A stretch of 64,000 nt of DNA from a virus (taxonomy: Duplodnaviria; Heunggongvirae; Uroviricota; Caudoviricetes). Where the stretch lies: positions 20,420 through 84,419 of the IMG/VR virus record IMGVR_UViG_2974574300_000001; one strand, written 5' to 3'. The first letter of the stretch is position 1. Every line of letters starts with the position of its first letter. Under the pieces are notes generated by a model. It ran no database searches, had not been told where the DNA came from, and worked only from the letters and a program-made list of their open reading frames with translations. Position numbers and translations under genes: made by a program. This document shows, piece by piece, positions 5,697-40,907 of the stretch.

Positions 5697-6863
5697 ATGG
5701 CAGTAGGTGAAATTCAAATTAGTGCCTTGCCTCAAGCAGCCTTACCAATTGACCTTAGTGATATCTTCCATCTTAAGCAGGGTATTGAGGATAAGAGATG
5801 TACTCTTGAGCAATTACTTGCTCCACACTCAAGCCTAAGAAATAACCCTCACGGTGTTACTAAAACACAAATTGGTTTAGATAATGTTATCAATGCTCTT
5901 CAGTTAGTTGCTGCAAATAACTTATCAGATGTTGCTAATGTCACTGAGGCAAGAGCAAATCTACAGATTATGTCTTCAGAAGAGGTTAATAGTCTTGTTC
6001 AACAGCATATTAATGATAAAAGTAACCCACACAATACAACTAAGGCACAGATTGGTTTGAGCAATGTCCAGAACTGGACAACATCTAATCTTTATAATGA
6101 AGATGCAGATAAGTACGCTACAGCAAGAGCAGTAAATAACTTGTACAAGGCTGTTCAGGCTTCTTATCCAGTAGGTACTATCCATCTCTCTATGAATCCT
6201 GCAAACCCTTCTACATATTTAATTTGTGGGGGTACTTGGGAGTTAGTTTCAAGAGGAAGAGCACTTGTAGGTTATGATAGTGATTCTAGGCCAGTTGGTA
6301 GTAACTTTGGCTCAAGTAGTGTTAGCTTATCTAGTAACAACCTACCATCACATAGCCATTCAATCTACCTAACTGGTGGTGGACACACTCATGGTGCTGC
6401 TATTACTATTGATGGCTTTGATTACGGCAATAAGAGCACAAACAGTTTCGATTATGGAACAAAGACCACTAATAGCACTGGTGCTCACACCCACTCAGTG
6501 AGTGGTTCAACAAATACCACAGGTAATCACACACATACTGTAGGTGGTCGTTATGGTGGTGACTCTATCGGTGGTAAACCGCGTGTTCAGGTATCTGGTA
6601 CAGAACAGGTTTCCAGTGTAGCTGGTGACCACTCACACACTATTAGCGGTTCAACAAATACCACAGGCAATCACCAACACACTGTTGCAATTGGTGCTCA
6701 CACGCATACTGTTGCAATTGGTGCTCATACCCATAAAGGCACAGTAACTTTGCAGTCATCTGAGCATACTCACTCAGGTACTACAGGTACTACAGGTGCT
6801 GGTCAAGCATTCAGCGTTGAACAACCATCCTTTGTGGTTTATGTATGGCAAAGAACCGCTTAA
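5697..6863 (+). CDS. tail fiber protein with C-terminal His-x-His repeat (metal-binding-type) tip
   Basis: 388 aa; C-terminus has many HxH motifs (SHSHS, GHTHG, AHTHSVSG, NHTHTV, DHSHT, NHQHTV, AHTHTV x2), as in T4 gp37/gp12-type fiber tips; shares a near-identical module with 8322..9257. Confidence 0.6.
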   Translation: MAVGEIQISALPQAALPIDLSDIFHLKQGIEDKRCTLEQLLAPHSSLRNNPHGVTKTQIGLDNVINALQLVAANNLSDVANVTEARANLQIMSSEEVNSLVQQHINDKSNPHNTTKAQIGLSNVQNWTTSNLYNEDADKYATARAVNNLYKAVQASYPVGTIHLSMNPANPSTYLICGGTWELVSRGRALVGYDSDSRPVGSNFGSSSVSLSSNNLPSHSHSIYLTGGGHTHGAAITIDGFDYGNKSTNSFDYGTKTTNSTGAHTHSVSGSTNTTGNHTHTVGGRYGGDSIGGKPRVQVSGTEQVSSVAGDHSHTISGSTNTTGNHQHTVAIGAHTHTVAIGAHTHKGTVTLQSSEHTHSGTTGTTGAGQAFSVEQPSFVVYVWQRTA

Positions 6864-6876
6864 AAATTCTTTTACA

Positions 6877-6898
6877 GGGGGCTGTACAGCCCTCTTTC
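6877..6898 (+). terminator. stem-loop plus T-rich tract between tail fiber genes
   Basis: gggct-gtac-agccc followed by tctttct; preceded by ctttacagggggct motif also present in the 51-54 kb cassettes. Confidence 0.3.
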
Positions 6899-6913
6899 TA
6901 GAGGACAAAAATA

Positions 6914-8275
6914 ATGGCAGATTACAAATTGAGTGAATTAAACTCAATCGATACAATCCGTTCAGACGACCTTCTTCATGTCAGGGTTAAAAAGAGACCT
7001 GAAATGCTGGGTGATGAAGACCGTCGAATGACCTATCAAGACTTCTTAGCATCTTTTAAGCTTGAAAGATTTGTTCAGATTGCTGGTAGTACTATGACTG
7101 GTGACTTAGGGATTGTTAAGTTACTTTATGGTGGTAAGGCAGTCTTTGACCCTACAGGCTCTTCCGAGATTACTATGGGGGATGTTTTAAAGACTTTTAA
7201 AATTAATGCAAATGGTCTTAAACTAACTATTGCAGATGCTTCAAGGTCTGCAACTGTTTATCATACTCTTAATAAGCCAAGTCCTAATGAGCTTGGGATG
7301 AGAACTAATGAAGAGAATGATGCAAGATATGCAAGGCTTGCTGTCACAAACACATTCTCTGGGACTCAGAACATTCAAGGTGATGTTAACTTACTTCGCC
7401 TTAGAAACCAAAATGCAAATAATGCACAATATATTGAAGGTGTAGACCTAGATGGCTCGGCTAGATGGTTGGTTGGTATTAGTAAAAATGGTTCTGATGC
7501 AGTGCAGTTGTACAATAATAAATATGACTCAGCTTTGACTATTGCAAGTAATATCTCTGTTAATAAGTCTTTAGCAATCACTGGTCAAGTCCAACCTTCG
7601 GATTTCTCTAACTTAGATGCTAGATACTTTACTCAGACAGTTGCTAATCAGAGATTTGCACAGTTAGCTGGGAATAACACTTTTACAGGTGCTAATACTT
7701 TCACTAACCTTGTTGTTAAGAAGAATGCTAATGCTATTACTTTGCAGAATACTGATGCAGGTACAGCACTTTATATTCTCGGTAAGAGGTCTGATGGAAC
7801 AAATAAATGGTATGTTGGTACAGATTCTGATGAGACACGTCTGAACATTTATAACTACCTTACAGGTTCACAGGTTTCACTAGGGACTACTATTGGTATT
7901 AATAAAACCGTGCAAATCAATGGTCAAGTTCAGCCATCTGATTGGACTAACATTGACTCTAGATATATTCCGGCAGCAACATTAAGTACAATTGCAAGAA
8001 CTAATGCACAAAATACTTTTAATGGTGCGCAAACAGTTGTTAGTGATGGCGAAGGTTTAGTTATTAAAAACTCTACTCAGAATAGGCCATTGTATATTCG
8101 TGGTAAGGACGCTGCCAATGTATCAAGATGGTGGTTAGGTGTTGGTGACCCAAATTCTACTGATGTAGCCTTAAACAACAGCTTCTCTGGCACTCAGTTA
8201 ATTTTAGGTAACTCATCTGCAAGTATCAATAAGACATTAACCCTAGCAGCAGATTCAACCTTCAGATTTCTCTAA
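6914..8275 (+). CDS. tail fiber protein with triplicated ~115 aa module
   Basis: 453 aa; internal repeats each ending GQVQPSD(F/W)(S/T)N(L/I)D(A/S)RY; third copy runs across the stop into the frame of the next ORF. Confidence 0.55.
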   Translation: MADYKLSELNSIDTIRSDDLLHVRVKKRPEMLGDEDRRMTYQDFLASFKLERFVQIAGSTMTGDLGIVKLLYGGKAVFDPTGSSEITMGDVLKTFKINANGLKLTIADASRSATVYHTLNKPSPNELGMRTNEENDARYARLAVTNTFSGTQNIQGDVNLLRLRNQNANNAQYIEGVDLDGSARWLVGISKNGSDAVQLYNNKYDSALTIASNISVNKSLAITGQVQPSDFSNLDARYFTQTVANQRFAQLAGNNTFTGANTFTNLVVKKNANAITLQNTDAGTALYILGKRSDGTNKWYVGTDSDETRLNIYNYLTGSQVSLGTTIGINKTVQINGQVQPSDWTNIDSRYIPAATLSTIARTNAQNTFNGAQTVVSDGEGLVIKNSTQNRPLYIRGKDAANVSRWWLGVGDPNSTDVALNNSFSGTQLILGNSSASINKTLTLAADSTFRFL

Positions 8276-15839: not shown

Positions 15840-16030
15840 TACTCAATGTCAATAAGTTCTTGTGCAATGCTTTTCAGATTACCTTTCAAGAAAACCTTCT
15901 CAGAACCTGAAAGAGATGAATTGTCAATTAACCTGTTCATCCTCTCAAACAACTTCTGCTTACGGTTCTTGATAGTTTCCTTTGAAGCACCTTTCATCAT
16001 TGCTGCATGGGTTCTTCCACGGTGGCTCAT
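15821..16030 (-). CDS. hypothetical protein
   Basis: 69 aa ORF. Confidence 0.3.
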   Translation of the reverse strand: MSHRGRTHAAMMKGASKETIKNRKQKLFERMNRLIDNSSLSGSEKVFLKGNLKSIAQELIDIEYWRHQK

Positions 16031-16081
16031 AAGCCCTCCTATATAAGATACAGTATAAGGTACTCTTCCCTGAGCACCTTG

Positions 16082-16597
16082 TCAACTTAGTTTTGCAAAC
16101 TCTCCGTGGAGTTTAATAGCAGCTTCACAGTAAGCTTTATGGGCTTCTTCTTCCGTTGTGTATGTTCCTATATGTATAGTCTTGCCATTATGGTTAATCT
16201 GGGCTATCCACTTACCAGACTTGCTTCTACTTGTACCTTTTAAGTTTTTTGATGTTCTGGGTTGTCTCCTATTAGACATGTTCTGCTCTTTTGTGGCCTC
16301 TCTTAGATTGTCCCAAGCGTTATTCAAACCATCTCCATCTTTGTGGTCAATGTGTTTATCAGGCCACTTACCTGTCATCCAGAACCAAGCAATTCGGTGA
16401 TTACCTGTCCTGTATCCTAAAATCTGTGTGTGCATATACACACCAGACCTTGTGCGCTTAATTGCTCCGGCTTGGCTTCCAATGACCACCCTACTACTAT
16501 GTGGAGGTCTCCCAATCCATGTTAAGACCCCTGTTTCGGGGTCATAATCTAACCAAGACTTTAACTGTTCATGTGTGAATCCACAATCTCTCATCAA
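16082..16597 (-). CDS. HNH homing endonuclease with AP2-type DNA-binding domain
   Basis: 171 aa; YDPETGVLTW N-terminus, IDHKDGDGLNNAWDNL HNH region, C-terminal EEEAHKAYCEAAIKLHGEFA; free-standing, directly downstream of the polymerase. Confidence 0.65.
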   Translation of the reverse strand: MMRDCGFTHEQLKSWLDYDPETGVLTWIGRPPHSSRVVIGSQAGAIKRTRSGVYMHTQILGYRTGNHRIAWFWMTGKWPDKHIDHKDGDGLNNAWDNLREATKEQNMSNRRQPRTSKNLKGTSRSKSGKWIAQINHNGKTIHIGTYTTEEEAHKAYCEAAIKLHGEFAKLS

Positions 16598-17148
16598 TGT
16601 ACCTCATACCAGCTCTTACCAACTTTACCAGTACCAGTTACAAGCGTTTCCTCCTTAAGACCTAAGTTTCTTGATGCCTGACCATACATCCAGTCAATTA
16701 CTGCTTTAACATCCTGTGTCATCTCTTCTGGGCACTCCCAACTATTCTCGTCGTGGTATGCTAAAAGCAATCTAGCACCAATAGCTGGTTTTCGACCATT
16801 CAGCTTTGTAAGACCCTCTTCACAAGCCCTTCTACAAGCAAGGTTGATAGCTTCATTCTGAACCTGACTTTCCGAACCCATGAGCAAGTAATTTAAAAGT
16901 TTGTGCGGAGATTTACACCACAACCATGCACCTGCTACCTTTACAAAACCACCCTTAGAGATTGCAGCAGTCTTACCAAACACCTCTTCAAGAGCCTTCT
17001 TAGTGGCTTTGAAGTCTGCTTCCAAATTATCTATCAACTTTTTAATCTTAGGAAGGCGTACAAAGTAAGTTTGCTTAGTTAAAGCACCCTCTTCAGTAGT
17101 TGCAGCTTTAATCGTCTTAGCAAACTTCTCGTCACCTGCCCCAAACAA
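16594..17148 (-). CDS. DNA polymerase (family A), 3' exon
   Basis: 184 aa with FGAGDEKF (end of motif B) and LLAYHDE (motif C); separated from upstream pol ORF by an ORF-bearing intron-like insert. Confidence 0.7.
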   Translation of the reverse strand: MFGAGDEKFAKTIKAATTEEGALTKQTYFVRLPKIKKLIDNLEADFKATKKALEEVFGKTAAISKGGFVKVAGAWLWCKSPHKLLNYLLMGSESQVQNEAINLACRRACEEGLTKLNGRKPAIGARLLLAYHDENSWECPEEMTQDVKAVIDWMYGQASRNLGLKEETLVTGTGKVGKSWYEVH

Positions 17149-17951
17149 TACATCTGGTCAATACACTCGCAAGGTGTACCAGTTCTCTTATGAACTTCTC
17201 CGCATTTCTACGGAGTGTCGGACTATATCACGTAGCAGTGCTGCTACCGTTGCGCTTGGGATGGTCATTAGCTTACCACCCTACTCTACTCAGTTCATAC
17301 GTTAAGTATGCTTTTCGATAGTCTCTGAACGTTTCTCTGTTAGGAATCTCTATAATCATGTTATTTACTCAGGTAGTCAATTGCCCTTTGCATATTATCA
17401 ACGCTATCTGCAAGCAACCCCAAAGCTCTATTGCAATTGTGGCACAACATACCTCTTACTTTTCCGGTTTTGTGGTCATGGTCAACGACAAGTTTAGCCT
17501 TATGCCGTGAGCTATTCATGATAAAACCTTCACCGCCACAAATTTGACATTTGTAATCACAGTTACGAAGTAGGGTTTCAACCTCTTCTCTTTCTAAACC
17601 ATATGTTCTCAGGTAGTAATTCTTAACTCTACCTTTCTCTCCGCAATGCGAAGAACAATAAACTTGCCTTGCTGTTCTAGGCATGAACACCTTCTCACAG
17701 CTAGGACATTTCTTAGTAAGAACCCTATGTTCTGCTCTTCTGTCAAATTTTAATACGCAACTTCTGCACCGTTTTTGATTGTATTGGTATGGTTTAAACT
17801 CTGCACCACACTCAGTACACAATCTCTCTTTGTAACCTGCCATTGTCTCTCTCCTTTGTTTTAGGAGTCCTAACAGAGACTTCGCTGCTGATTACCATGT
17901 CTTTACAGACTTAGGCTTCCAGCAATTCACAACGTTTTACATGCGCCACTG
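17149..17951 (-). mobile_element. putative group I intron in the DNA polymerase gene (boundaries approximate)
   Basis: ~0.8 kb insert with stops in all pol frames, carrying an endonuclease ORF; joining ...RKKAKNGIYA to LLFGAG reconstructs the pol-A motif B spacing. Confidence 0.5.
17361..17843 (-). CDS. intron-encoded endonuclease (endonuclease VII-like HNH)
   Basis: 160 aa with multiple CxxC pairs and VVDHDHKTGKVRGMLCHNCNRALG, resembling T4 endo VII-type HNH. Confidence 0.6.
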   Translation of the reverse strand: MAGYKERLCTECGAEFKPYQYNQKRCRSCVLKFDRRAEHRVLTKKCPSCEKVFMPRTARQVYCSSHCGEKGRVKNYYLRTYGLEREEVETLLRNCDYKCQICGGEGFIMNSSRHKAKLVVDHDHKTGKVRGMLCHNCNRALGLLADSVDNMQRAIDYLSK

Positions 17952-20124
17952 ACGCATAAATACCATTCTTGGCTTTCTTACGACCCTTACTAATTTCTTG
18001 AAGAAGGTTTGTATCCTGAGTAGCTCGACAAGTCAAGATATCTTCCTCTTTATTAAGGCTGAAGTAGATACTATTTAAAGTATGTGCATCAGTTCCTGAG
18101 TACACCACGTACAAGTCATTTTCCGAATCATAATGCAAATACTTGTCAATCTCTGGGTTTAGATACTGGTCAAAATGTTTACAATAGTATCTACCATCCT
18201 CTTGTTTGACAAACTCAACCTCTTCTTTACCCTCTGTCACTGCTTTGGTGAACTCTTTATCACCCATAAAGTTACACAGCAGTACAAGTTGCGCGCTATT
18301 CATATCTGCTGAAACAATATTAGTCCCTTCTTCACAAGTCCACACCTCCCGCATAGGTGCTCCATAGACAGCAGCACCAGATGGTACGTTTACAATACCA
18401 TATTGTGTCATACGCCCAGTTGAAGTACCAAACACCATTGCACCAGCACTAAGGCGACCATCAGGACGAATCTGGTTCAACCAACCTTTTTCATCATCCT
18501 TTGAGTTCTCAATAGTTCTGCGTCTGTGCATCAAAGTATAGTATTTAGCAATCTTCTGTCCAAGCTCACCTTCAATCGTATCATAAGATGATTCAGTAAG
18601 TTTTGGCGAAGTACGGATTAAGCAAGGCTCAAGCAAATCTGTGTACTTCTTCACAGACCAGTTATGCTCAATGTACTGGACACCTTCATGTTCAACATAA
18701 CTCAAACCACACCGCTCAACCATTTCCTGCCACTTAGGATGTTTTGTAATCATCTTTTTATTGTCTTTGAAACGACAAACTTTGACAGGACGACCATCTG
18801 AGTCTTTCTTGTAGTTCCAGTCATCTGGAATCCAACCAACTGATTTCAAGTAGTCTTTAACAACTGCTACCTGAGTCATACGAGAAACTTCGAACTCAAT
18901 TGGTGTATATGGTGCATCAATCAAACCTGTGTAGCGACTTGACTCAAGTTCAAAGTGGTTAACGACGTGGCTGTTATAGTACTTCACAGTTTTGACTGTT
19001 TTTACTGGTTTCCAGTCTTTGCATTTCTTACCAATCTTTGCGTTCAACTCATTGCAAATTGCACGAGCATCCTTCATTGCTACAAAGCCTTCCTTGTACT
19101 CTTCACCAGTTACAGTGTTGGTTGGTGTATAGCAATTTCTCTTTTCAATGTTAAAAATCTTTGTAGTTGGCTTACCAAATGGCTTGATTTCATAAGTTTG
19201 CATCTCACCGTTACGTACCTGCTGACGATACTTTGTTTTAGGGTACTTGGTAATTCTCTTCAGTCCATCTGCATGACCAAATGTTTCAACATACTCATTC
19301 CAAGCTTTTGCAAACTCTTCTCCAGTGACTTTACCTTTGGTCTTAATAGTTGGAGGAAGATGTGGTTCAACCTCTGAAGCAAGCTCATTAGTCAACTTGT
19401 CAAGTTCCTTCACATGGAACTCCATAAGCTCTTTATCAGCTTTCCAACCATTGATAGCTTGTTGACTCATCCAGAAAGATGTTTCTTTAGCTCGCATGTA
19501 GGTTTCATAAGTGTCTATGCCACACTTCTTAAGCTTGAGATACTCATTATCAAGTGCCCGTTTAGTTTTGGCGTTAATACGGATATCTTCTACAACACGA
19601 GTGAAGATTTCTGCATTCCACACACCCCAATGCTCAATCTCTGGTTTACGAACACCAACACGAGCACCCCATGCAGCCAAACCATGAGCACCTTTATAAC
19701 CCTTTGGAGTTGGTCTATCCATCCACTGAACACGAGACTGGATAAGAGAATCCTGAAAGAAATTACTCCACGGCTTACATTTTGGATTATCAAAGTTCCA
19801 TAAATCCGGTGCAATGTGATTGAAGACCCACCAGTCATAACCGAGGCCGTTATGGATACAAAGTCGTTTTGCCTTTAACGCAAACTCAACACCTTCACGT
19901 AAACCACCCTTAATGTACTTAGTGTACTTGTGACCGAGGATAGGCTCATCTGTAAAGACCCATACAGGTGGCTCTTCATCGTCAGATTTATAGTCTGCAA
20001 AGGCCATTACGTGAACTTTAGTGAACTCAAGGAGTAAACCATCAGTTTCTGTATCACCAACCAAATGTAAGTTTTTAAAATCTACGTTTTCCATTTTTAC
20101 TCCCTCTAAAATCATTAACCCCAT
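17952..20124 (-). CDS. DNA polymerase (family A), 5' exon with 3'-5' exonuclease region
   Basis: ORF 17911..20124 (737 aa); the last ~13 codons are probably intron sequence; C-terminus reaches the start of motif B (RKKAKNGIY). Confidence 0.7.
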
Positions 20125-20154
20125 ACATTACTGCAAAAAATTATAAAAAGCAAG

Positions 20155-20183
20155 TTGACAATACACTTGACAAGGTGTTAATC
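20155..20183 (+). promoter_or_regulatory. sigma70-like promoter in divergent intergenic region
   Basis: ttgaca-N17-ttaatc; a second ttgacaagg box lies inside the spacer. Confidence 0.3.
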
Positions 20184-20350
20184 TTTGCGAAGTGGGTTTT
20201 TACTTAAAAGGTTACTTAACAGTTTAACTATACAGATACTTTAAAACTCTTAAAAGATTATTTAATAGCTTTTAAAAAGCTTTAAAGTATAACGTATAGA
20301 ATACGTTAAGATAAAAGATTAAACTTAATAGTTACTTAAAAGAGGCTTAC

Positions 20351-20773
20351 ATGCAGAAAATGTTTGTTCACCCAGACATAGCTGACTTTGTTAGAGCTTT
20401 GCAGAAGTTGGAAGAACTTGACATTGCTGCTCAACGGGAATATGCTCACCATCACAGGAGAATGGTTGATATACAACATGAAATAGAGTTGTCTGAAAAC
20501 TATGAAGATGACTTAAAATGCTCTGTATTTGAGCATATGAAAGATGTTGCTACAGCGAGACGTAAAGCTAAAGACACAGTTGCTTTACTAGATTCTCTTA
20601 AAAAGAGGTTGCAAAGTGGTACAGACCTGTGTAATCTAGCGTCACTGATTAACGATGTTGAAACTTCTTGGGATAGGCACTATTATCCACGTTCTGAAAA
20701 GACACTTGACTTTTCTTCATCCGAAAACTTAAAATGTTCTAGAAAGAAACTTAACCAACTGAGAGAGAAATAA
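20351..20773 (+). CDS. hypothetical protein
   Basis: 140 aa ORF opening the + strand replication block. Confidence 0.4.
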   Translation: MQKMFVHPDIADFVRALQKLEELDIAAQREYAHHHRRMVDIQHEIELSENYEDDLKCSVFEHMKDVATARRKAKDTVALLDSLKKRLQSGTDLCNLASLINDVETSWDRHYYPRSEKTLDFSSSENLKCSRKKLNQLREK

Positions 20774-27014: not shown

Positions 27015-27491
27015 AGAATACCTACACTATGACCCGAAACAGGGGTCTTTACTTGGTTAGTTGATAGAAAAGGTAAGGCCAAAGCTGGCTCAGTAGCAGG
27101 TTTTAAACACCATAGCGGTTATATCTATATAAAACTCTTCGGAAAAAGATATGCAGCACACAGGCTGGCATTCTTGTATATGAAAGGATACCTCCCAAAA
27201 TTTGTTGACCACAAGAATTGTATCAGATACGACAACTGGTTCGACAATTTGAGAGAGTGTAGCAGGTCAGACAACAACTGTAATGCAGTCAAAAGAAGAG
27301 ATAATAAGTCTGGTGTGAAGGGTGTATATTACCACAAGCAAAGAGGTAGATGGGCTGCACAAGTTAAGCATAATAAAGTTTGCTACCATCTAGGTCTATT
27401 TGACTCTGTTGCTGAGGCTGAAGAAGTTGTCAAAAAGAAAAGAGAAGAACTTCATAGAGAGTTTACAAATCACGGAGAAGCTCATGAATGA
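26992..27491 (+). pseudogene. HNH-AP2 homing endonuclease interrupted by a frameshift near 27033-27040
   Basis: ATG at 26992 gives MLTQQTLKEYLHYDPKQGSLLG then stop; next frame continues PETGVFTWLVDRKGKAKAGSVAGFKHHSGYIYIKLFGKRYAAHRLAF into ORF 27174..27491; YDPETGV(F/L)TW matches the intact paralogs at 16082 and 40416. Confidence 0.55.
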
Positions 27492-40415: not shown

Positions 40416-40907
40416 ATGAATAAGGGTTATTTTGAAAGATACCTAATATATGAACCAGATACAGGTTTATTAATTTGGAGAGTAACCCTTTGCAGTACCG
40501 CTATTGCTGGTAATGTGGCTGGCACAAGGTCTAAGAAGGGTTATATCCAAGTCCAGATAAATAAGAAGAGGTACTATGCACATAATATTGCATGGATTAT
40601 GTCTGGAGGTGAGATACCAAGTGGATATGAGATAGACCACATAGACCTTGATAAATCTAATAATAAGTTGGAGAATTTAAGACTTAGCACAAAGTCACAA
40701 AATCAGAGGAATAGGGGTATATACAAGAATAATAAAACTGGTGTGAAGGGTGTAAGTTTTTGTAAACAAACAGGTCTTTACAAAGCAAGAGTCATGCTTT
40801 ACCATAAAGAATACTTTTGTGGAAGATTTAAAACGGTAGAAGAAGCAAAAGAAGCTGTAATTAAAAAGCGAATAGAACTTCATGGTGAGTTTGCAAGACA
40901 TAACTAA
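40416..40907 (+). CDS. HNH homing endonuclease with AP2-type DNA-binding domain
   Basis: 163 aa; YEPDTGLLIW N-terminus, YEIDHIDLDKSNNKLENL HNH region, C-terminal EEAKEAVIKKRIELHGEFA; sits between the Prs-like and NAMPT-like genes. Confidence 0.65.
   Translation: MNKGYFERYLIYEPDTGLLIWRVTLCSTAIAGNVAGTRSKKGYIQVQINKKRYYAHNIAWIMSGGEIPSGYEIDHIDLDKSNNKLENLRLSTKSQNQRNRGIYKNNKTGVKGVSFCKQTGLYKARVMLYHKEYFCGRFKTVEEAKEAVIKKRIELHGEFARHN

Follow-up and report, generated by a model that had tools for sequence, protein, structure and literature searches.

Group I introns that carry homing endonuclease genes have been known in the polymerase genes of phages since SPO1. The introns of the T4 genes td, nrdB and nrdD (sunY), which belong to subgroup IA2, also have looped-out open reading frames (ORFs) for homing endonucleases. 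Here we analyse an insert in the family-A DNA polymerase gene of a Felixounavirus (a Felix O1-like phage). It lies in a 64,000-nt stretch of a Caudoviricetes genome (IMG/VR record IMGVR_UViG_2974574300_000001, positions 20,420 to 84,419), hereafter the window, whose numbering is used throughout. The polymerase gene, its insert and the gene that follows it are all on the minus strand. This region is 100% identical to Salmonella phage SBA-1781 over 4301 bases, and 90-97% identical to many Felixounavirus genomes. Judged by its sequence, this insert is a genuine group I intron. The T4 introns differ from it in their host genes and in their endonuclease families (GIY-YIG, HNH), and no close sequence match to them appeared among the distant BLAST matches listed.

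Among the systems most like this one are other phage polymerase introns, namely those of SPO1 and SP82 (I-HmuI, I-HmuII), Bastille (I-BasI), Pf-WMP3 (I-PfoP3I), ΦI and W31 (I-TslI), phiL7, LUZ24 and Yersinia phage Berlin. All are group I (IA2) introns with ORFs of the ββα-Me fold, and they share an architecture in which a self-splicing intron interrupts a conserved polymerase motif and contains both P7.1 and P7.2. The Pf-WMP3 intron is reported to lack P2 and to have its ORF in P6a, where the ORFs of ΦI and W31 are also found (PMC3428280). The intron ORFs of Berlin, YpP-G and LUZ24 are of the endonuclease VII type (PMC6083498), as is the ORF studied here. In E. coli numbering, the known group I introns of family-A polymerase genes are inserted at 674, 676 and 881 (PMC3428280).

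For Felix O1-like phages, our literature searches found only passing mentions of this intron. The genome paper on Felix O1 reported no introns in that phage (PMC3185647), and Moreno Switt et al. (2013) noted that Felix O1-like phages have genes into which homing endonuclease genes are inserted (PMC3728262). In the list of Fang et al. (2018), the ORFs of endonuclease VII type in JH2, EC6 and FSL SP-010 are given as intron-encoded (PMC6083498), and the SPJ41 paper mentions 'two introns' from a scan for noncoding RNA (PMC9951933). Our sequence searches found that JH2 and EC6 carry the same intron as the window. More broadly, the introns of JH2, EC6, FSL SP-010, VpaE1, GEC_vB_B1, REP6, Meda and other Felixounavirus phages occupy the same site, with cores 96-98% identical to that of the window and, in the loci compared, ORFs of 79-97% amino-acid identity; ORF-less, ORF-deleted and frameshifted forms exist as well. 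The record of phage Meda annotates the polymerase as a two-piece joined coding sequence (CDS), and the other records examined list two polymerase CDSs.

An earlier note on this DNA, made from its letters alone, had described a polymerase in two pieces around an intron-like element and had pointed to intron-less homologs and covariance models as the means of checking it. The pieces are as it described them: ORFs of 737 aa (17911..20124) and 184 aa (16594..17148) flank an insert that holds a 160-aa ORF with CxxC pairs (17361..17843). We aligned the window with the intron-less phages wV8 and Andreotti, with REP6, which has a short ORF-less insert, and with GEC_vB_B1, whose insert contains the ORF. 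In wV8 and Andreotti, the polymerase is a single 2721-nt CDS that is collinear across the junction, and these two phages fix the insertion site to the base. The intron spans 17151..17951 (801 nt) and interrupts codon L725 in phase 1, so that of the previously suggested limits, 17149-17951, the second was exact and the first was two bases off. Its 5' end is CAGUGGCGCAUG and its 3' end GACCAGAUG.

Alleles with an empty site read TATGCA|CTGCTGTTC, that is TATGCA CTG CTG TTC (A-L-L-F), the wV8-type site being AATGGTATCTATGCACTGCTGTTCGGTGCAGG. In alleles with the intron, the sequence is TATGCGT[intron]TATTGTT. If the boundary is moved one base to either side, A-L-L is lost, and the boundary given here is the only one that restores it. 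The same boundary also yields the U·G pair of P1, the terminal G and the P10 pairing. Because the intron-less relatives are collinear at the junction and the same insert occupies the same site in 95 phage records, the insert is not a chance pattern.

Exon 1 (17952..20124) comprises 724 codons and the first base of L725, and carries the TETDG motif of the exonuclease as well as motif A of the polymerase (SADMNSAQL). The 13 C-terminal residues of the 737-aa ORF (SVAHVKRCELLEA) are read-through into the intron. The start codon of the polymerase may lie a few codons inside 20124, as the annotated start in relatives is three codons downstream. Exon 2 (16594..17150) opens with the last two bases of L725 and supplies the remainder of motif B (LFGAG), motif C (YHDE) and the TGA stop at 16596-16594. 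Joined in silico, the exons encode a 909-aa polymerase that has no internal stop and reads ...NGIYA-L-LFGAG across the junction, the same residues (...NGIYALLFGAG) as in wV8 and Andreotti. The predicted ligated junction is ...ATTTATGCGT|TATTGTTTGG..., with the ligated-exon sequence GCGTTATTG and the junction-spanning peptide NGIYALLFGAGDEK.

Alignment with T7 DNA polymerase agrees with this joining, and with the earlier suggestion that YA followed by LLFGAG restores motif B. In this alignment, RKKAKNGIYALLFGAG corresponds to T7 R518-G533 and GRKKAKNGIYALLFGAG to T7 T517-G533. Motif B, which forms the O-helix, straddles the junction, and the intron falls between the equivalents of T7 G527 and F528. 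In the motif-B alignment, the site is the equivalent of residues 763/764 of E. coli Pol I. This position differs from the three sites in PMC3428280, and the endonucleases compared in that paper are HNH-type, unlike the one encoded here.

The ribozyme was drawn by hand as P1, P3, P4, P5, P5a, P6, P7, P7.1, P7.2, P8, P9, P9.1, P9.2 and P10, and each pair was checked. The 5' half (17868..17957) runs from P1 to the 5' strand of P6. P1 has 6 bp, AUGCGU/GCGCAU (17957-17952 with 17946-17941), including the U·G pair at the splice site (17952/17946), whose U is the last base of exon 1, and the P10 guide CAGUG (17951-17947) can form pairs with UAUUG, the five bases that open exon 2. The P1 U·G pair, the terminal G (17151) and P10 are invariant in eight alleles. 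P2 is absent. The 5' strand of P3 (17934-17928) is followed by P4 (17925-17920 with 17890-17885), by P5 and P5a (17916-17894, with a GUAA loop) and by P6, which has 12 bp (17879-17868 with 17345-17334) and a terminal loop of 522 nt (17867-17346). The 3' half (17151..17345) runs from the 3' strand of P6 to the terminal G. It contains J6/7 and the 5' strand of P7 (GUUCAGAGACUAU, 17330-17318), P7.1 (17310-17296), P7.2 (17281-17259), the 3' strand of P3 (17254-17248) and P8 (17247-17232). The J8/7-P7' element GAUAUAGUC (17229-17221), with the 3' strand of P7 at 17226-17221, then leads to P9 (17215-17198), P9.1 (17195-17182) and P9.2 (17181-17155).

The conserved group I elements GUUCAGAGACUA and GAUAUAGUC are both present in this structure, as is the P3/P7 pseudoknot, and the core helices (the P4-P6 domain, the P3/P7 pseudoknot and P8) are all complementary. 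Folding the ORF-excised core without constraints returned P1, P3, P4, P5, P5a, P6, P7.1, P7.2 and P8 as drawn, with P9 and P9.1 shifted; the fold has z = -4.55, and none of 100 shuffled sequences folds as well. Across the eight alleles, 99.8% of cells are paired and one cell is broken, compared with 29-46% paired when the 3' partners are slid. Small differences set the window allele apart from the others: C replaces U in P3, G-C replaces G·U in P5a, and one base beside P7.2 is deleted. Its two hairpins between P7 and the 3' strand of P3 are joined by a 14-nt linker, AACUGAGUAGAGUA, rather than by the short, bare GUA typical of IA2. With P7.1 and P7.2 present and P2 missing, and by analogy to other phage polymerase introns, the intron is IA-like and may be of subgroup IA2.

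Short alleles of this intron are recognised by the Rfam group I model. The gathering score of RF00028 is 50 bits. The 268-nt ORF-less intron of REP6 matches the model over its full length with 58.5 bits (E = 1.8e-14), and the 311-nt ORF-deleted intron of GEC_vB_NS7 scores 62.3 bits, also above the threshold. The ORF-excised core of the window is identical to REP6 at 275 of 287 positions (~96%) and to NS7 at 301 of 309 (~97%). The insert that was initially called intron-like has a group I core, obeys the splice-site rules and restores the reading frame when removed.

All of the 160-aa ORF is contained in the terminal loop of P6. It has its own ATG, is in a different frame from exon 1, and is preceded by a Shine-Dalgarno sequence, GGAG (17854-17851), seven bases before the ATG. 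The product matches the Pfam family Endonuclease_7 (PF02945) with 70.8 bits against a cutoff of 23.6, and its matches in the PDB are ββα-Me domains, those of Hpy99I (1.5e-5) and T4 endonuclease VII (4e-3). Fang et al. (2018) defined the DHHRN signature for F-CphI (PMC6083498), and all residues of this signature are present: C99xxC102, D121-H-D-H124 (D121, H122, D123, H124), R130 and C134xxC137-N138. The assignment of the ORF to the endonuclease VII type, with its CxxC pairs, is thus upheld, but the motif belongs to the endonuclease VII/DHHRN branch of the ββα-Me fold and is not a canonical HNH motif; it had been described as HNH-type.

The arrangement CxxC...DHDH...R...CxxC-N is shared with the F-CphI/DHHRN family, T4 endonuclease VII and Hpy99I. 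The nuclease domain is C-terminal, as in the 'endonuclease clade', whereas the motif of T4 endonuclease VII is N-terminal. The N-terminal part contains two CxxC...CxxC pairs, which suggest zinc-ribbon DNA-binding modules; relative to T4 endonuclease VII, a Holliday-junction resolvase, the window protein would thus add two N-terminal zinc ribbons. The window ORF is inside its intron; F-CphI, by contrast, stands free next to a psbA intron that has no ORF. Among the matches listed, the nearest relative outside Felixounavirus is an ORF of a T7-like Yersinia phage, with 51% identity over residues 44-159. The 160-aa protein is probably a homing endonuclease, with a proposed activity and target.

The intron ORF is under selection as a protein. 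Jukes-Cantor dS was not computable between the two ORF clades, in which synonymous sites are saturated, and pN/pS was used instead. Between alleles, pN/pS is 0.03-0.17, and the ORF is therefore maintained as a protein by purifying selection. Nucleotide identity between alleles is 74-92% in the ORF, compared with 96-97% in the ribozyme core and ~90% in the exons. The gap between ORF and ribozyme could reflect either very strong constraint on the RNA or exchange of endonuclease genes between near-identical introns.

A separate observation concerns the start of the endonuclease gene (17879-17841, minus strand). The GUCUCU of the 5' strand of P6 has an alternative partner in AGAGAC, immediately ahead of the endonuclease AUG, and the Shine-Dalgarno GGAG has a possible partner in CUCC. 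The resulting hairpin would hide the Shine-Dalgarno sequence, with a predicted energy of -12 kcal/mol, and folding of the diverged GEC_vB_B1 allele predicts it as well, with a longer inner stem. The z-scores in two diverged alleles are only -1.4 and -1.6, and we treat the hairpin as a lead rather than a finding.

How widespread is the intron? It is present in 95 of the 258 GenBank phage records that match the polymerase query region, most of them cultured isolates. For a finer comparison, we used 29 informative polymerase loci drawn from the window, GenBank and IMG/VR; the site is empty in 20 of them and holds the intron in nine. The endonuclease ORF is intact in five of the nine (160-161 aa), frameshifted in one (VpaE1), and deleted with the long P6 retained in one (NS7); the other two (REP6 and tootiki) have an ORF-less intron with a short P6. 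The frameshifted gene of VpaE1 (1716-2503 of locus L008) is decaying, and its longest ORF is 101 aa. NS7 (598-916 of locus L006) has lost the ORF and kept the long P6 stem with 43 nt of the loop, the deletion having fused the upstream leader of the ORF straight to its last few bases. Of the 60 intron-bearing GenBank matches listed, 45 are ORF-less. About 40 records have the endonuclease ORF at >=60% identity.

The exon bases at the junction differ between the two kinds of allele. All nine intron-bearing alleles have GCGT|TATTG, the bases required by P1 and P10, and the exact sequence occurs at none of the 20 empty sites. Two intron-less IMG/VR alleles (L020 and L024; junction at 2496-2503) read GCGTTACTG and GCGTTGCTG, intermediate between the usual GCACTGCTG and GCGT|TATTG. 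These junctions may mark a past loss of the intron or a partial conversion of the allele. A search of IMG/VR for TATGCGTTATTGTTYGG, the footprint that precise loss would leave, gave five matches, none of which matched the spliced polymerase by tblastn, and we regard them as chance. Altogether, the series of alleles fits the pattern expected of a mobile intron, running from invasion through decay of the endonuclease gene to loss. Presence or absence at a single site, purifying selection on the ORF and decayed ORF alleles are indirect support for homing.

We therefore favour a group I intron that splices itself, with a homing endonuclease gene in its P6 loop, accompanied by an independent HNH-AP2 element downstream, and we put the probability of this whole explanation at about 0.93. 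The polymerase gene would be transcribed as a single pre-mRNA, in which the 801-nt intron would fold and excise itself through two guanosine-initiated transesterifications. Ligation of ...UAUGCGU to UAUUGUUU... would then give an mRNA from which one 909-aa family-A polymerase is translated. During mixed infection, the 160-aa endonuclease would make a cut or nick close to the insertion site in polymerase alleles that lack the intron, and recombinational repair would copy the intron and a few flanking exon bases into the cut alleles. The HNH-AP2 gene would be a second, independent selfish element. Because 95 of 258 records, mostly cultured isolates, carry the intron, the interrupted essential gene must be expressed.

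Several points count against this explanation. The literature that we found contains neither experimental evidence of splicing or endonuclease activity for the element nor a secondary structure. The tentative label IA2-like draws on analogy and on two hairpins, P7.1 and P7.2. Support from covariation is slight: alleles with 96% identity were both the source of the structure and the sequences compared, and there are two compensatory pairs (U-A to C-G in P6; C-G to U-A in P8) and three wobble-only changes, the other variable sites being unpaired. The region 16000..20500 of the window scores 26.2 bits against RF00028 (E = 0.001), a partial match to P3-P6 that is below the gathering score, and no Rfam family reaches its gathering score anywhere in the 64-kb window, neither tRNAs nor the intron.

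The window's low score has an explanation, since the 522-nt ORF loop splits the core. The 26.2-bit match places the 3' strand of P6 and J6/7 inside the ORF at GGUGCAGAGUUUAAAC, a placement that we rejected as spurious; the true J6/7-P7 is at 17330-17318, downstream of the ORF. A search with 17100..17400 gave 9.9 bits (E = 4.8), a weak match to the 3' strand of P7 and P9. The covariance-model search thus supports the intron through the ORF-less and ORF-deleted alleles, with the window itself matching in part, and we consider the curated Rfam model stronger evidence than covariation.

Could the polymerase instead be made as two subunits? In that case, a homing endonuclease gene would have fractured the polymerase gene, and the halves would be translated separately and assembled without RNA splicing. 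Such fractured genes have a precedent in mobE within nrdA of Aeromonas phage Aeh1. Moreover, in most GenBank records the DNA polymerase is entered as two distinct CDSs, and a TTG at 17148 could open the 3' piece. However, the 3' piece has neither an in-frame ATG nor a Shine-Dalgarno sequence, the only nearby ATG (17153) being out of frame, and the break would fall inside the O-helix, at the equivalent of T7 G527/F528. A full group I core and canonical splice-site features flank the ORF, and versions of the insert without the ORF exist, which would not be expected from plain insertion of an endonuclease gene. The split polymerase that the earlier note had offered as its alternative is thus unsupported, and we consider it very improbable. 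An intein, or any other in-frame insertion at the protein level, would be in keeping with the position in a conserved motif and with nothing else. The frame of exon 1 meets a stop 13 codons into the insert, as the argument from stop codons had foreseen, the ORF is in another frame with its own Shine-Dalgarno sequence and ATG, and a Pfam search gave no intein domains. An intein is therefore excluded.

It is also conceivable that the window holds a decayed relic that splices poorly, the phage living on little spliced product or on the host polymerase. The window copy has a one-base deletion beside the 3' strand of P7.2 that all other alleles lack, and its score is below the Rfam threshold. Yet the base lost through the deletion is a bulged one and all seven pairs of P7.2 stay intact, each core helix is intact with 99.8% of cells paired, and the low score is accounted for by the 522-nt loop. 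The core is also much more conserved (96-97%) than the ORF (74-92%) and the exons (~90%), which indicates selection on the RNA, and many carriers are cultured phages in which this essential gene is interrupted. A relic is accordingly a most unlikely reading, and a self-splicing mobile intron accounts better for the locus.

The gene that follows the polymerase is a free-standing HNH-AP2 homing-endonuclease-type gene, as had been predicted. Its ORF spans 16082..16597 (171 aa), and the gene itself is best placed at 16082..16594, with a likely start at the ATG at 16594 that overlaps the polymerase stop by one base and has GAGG 7 nt upstream. Both Pfam domains were found, HNH_3 with 53.9 bits and AP2 with 38.1 bits. 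Nothing occupies this slot in wV8 and many other phages; in the intron-less Andreotti it holds a 99%-identical allele, and elsewhere alleles of 39-47% identity. Since its content varies independently of the intron, the gene is a separate, free-standing element. We considered collaborative homing of the HNH-AP2 gene with ORF-less introns and found no support for it, or for any functional link with the intron: some genomes with the intron have nothing in the slot, and it can be occupied in genomes without the intron. Two further HNH-AP2-type paralogues lie at 27033-27464 and 40431-40898, both on the plus strand, with 35% and 38% protein identity to the downstream gene, so the window has at least four homing-endonuclease-type genes. 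A promoter and terminator scan of 16000-20400 found sites no more numerous than in shuffled sequence.

A related group I intron also occurs in another gene and another genus. In Escherichia phage vB_EcoP-ZQ2 (Gamaleyavirus; MW630115, locus L007), an annotated RNA polymerase gene is interrupted by an intron at 460-703 that scores 91.8 bits against RF00028 and is 71% identical to the Felixounavirus core. No feature is annotated there, and an HNH-AP2-like ORF follows the intron at 764-1408. We tried this intron as a distant member for the covariation analysis and dropped it, as MAFFT misaligned P7.1-P8.

Two other observations concern the records themselves. In GEC_vB_B1 (locus L001), the DNA ligase gene downstream of the polymerase is annotated as two overlapping CDSs, 6803-7021 and from 6996 onwards, an arrangement that might stem from a frameshift, from a sequencing error or from a further interruption. 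Felixounavirus polymerase sequence (90-97% identity) also turns up in records labelled 'Campylobacter phage A126/A132' and 'Staphylococcus phage SA1', which are probably mixed or mislabelled assemblies.

What does this locus add to the known polymerase introns? The element is an ordinary mobile group I intron, already represented and recognised in public data. Only three points are mildly new: the intron sits in motif B, the homing-cycle series is complete in a single genus, and routine Rfam annotation fails to detect the ORF-containing form. Annotation of noncoding RNA at the Rfam gathering threshold thus has a blind spot for group I introns that contain an ORF. There is also value for annotation, as most GenBank records examined list two polymerase proteins and an 'endonuclease VII'. 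Felix O1-like phages are used in the biocontrol of Salmonella and E. coli, and a correct annotation of their replication genes is of some use.

For the biology of Felixounavirus, the series of empty, ORF-less, intact, frameshifted and deleted alleles could be a small natural model of the homing cycle. A bolder proposal takes several elements jointly: a fourth, hitherto uncharacterised group I site in family-A polymerases (motif B, 763/764), a single genus that keeps all homing stages, and a switch between P6 and the Shine-Dalgarno sequence that would make ribozyme folding and endonuclease translation mutually exclusive. We hold this combination to be rather unlikely as a whole. If it is true, the population of motif-B introns in this one genus would be a tractable model of homing.

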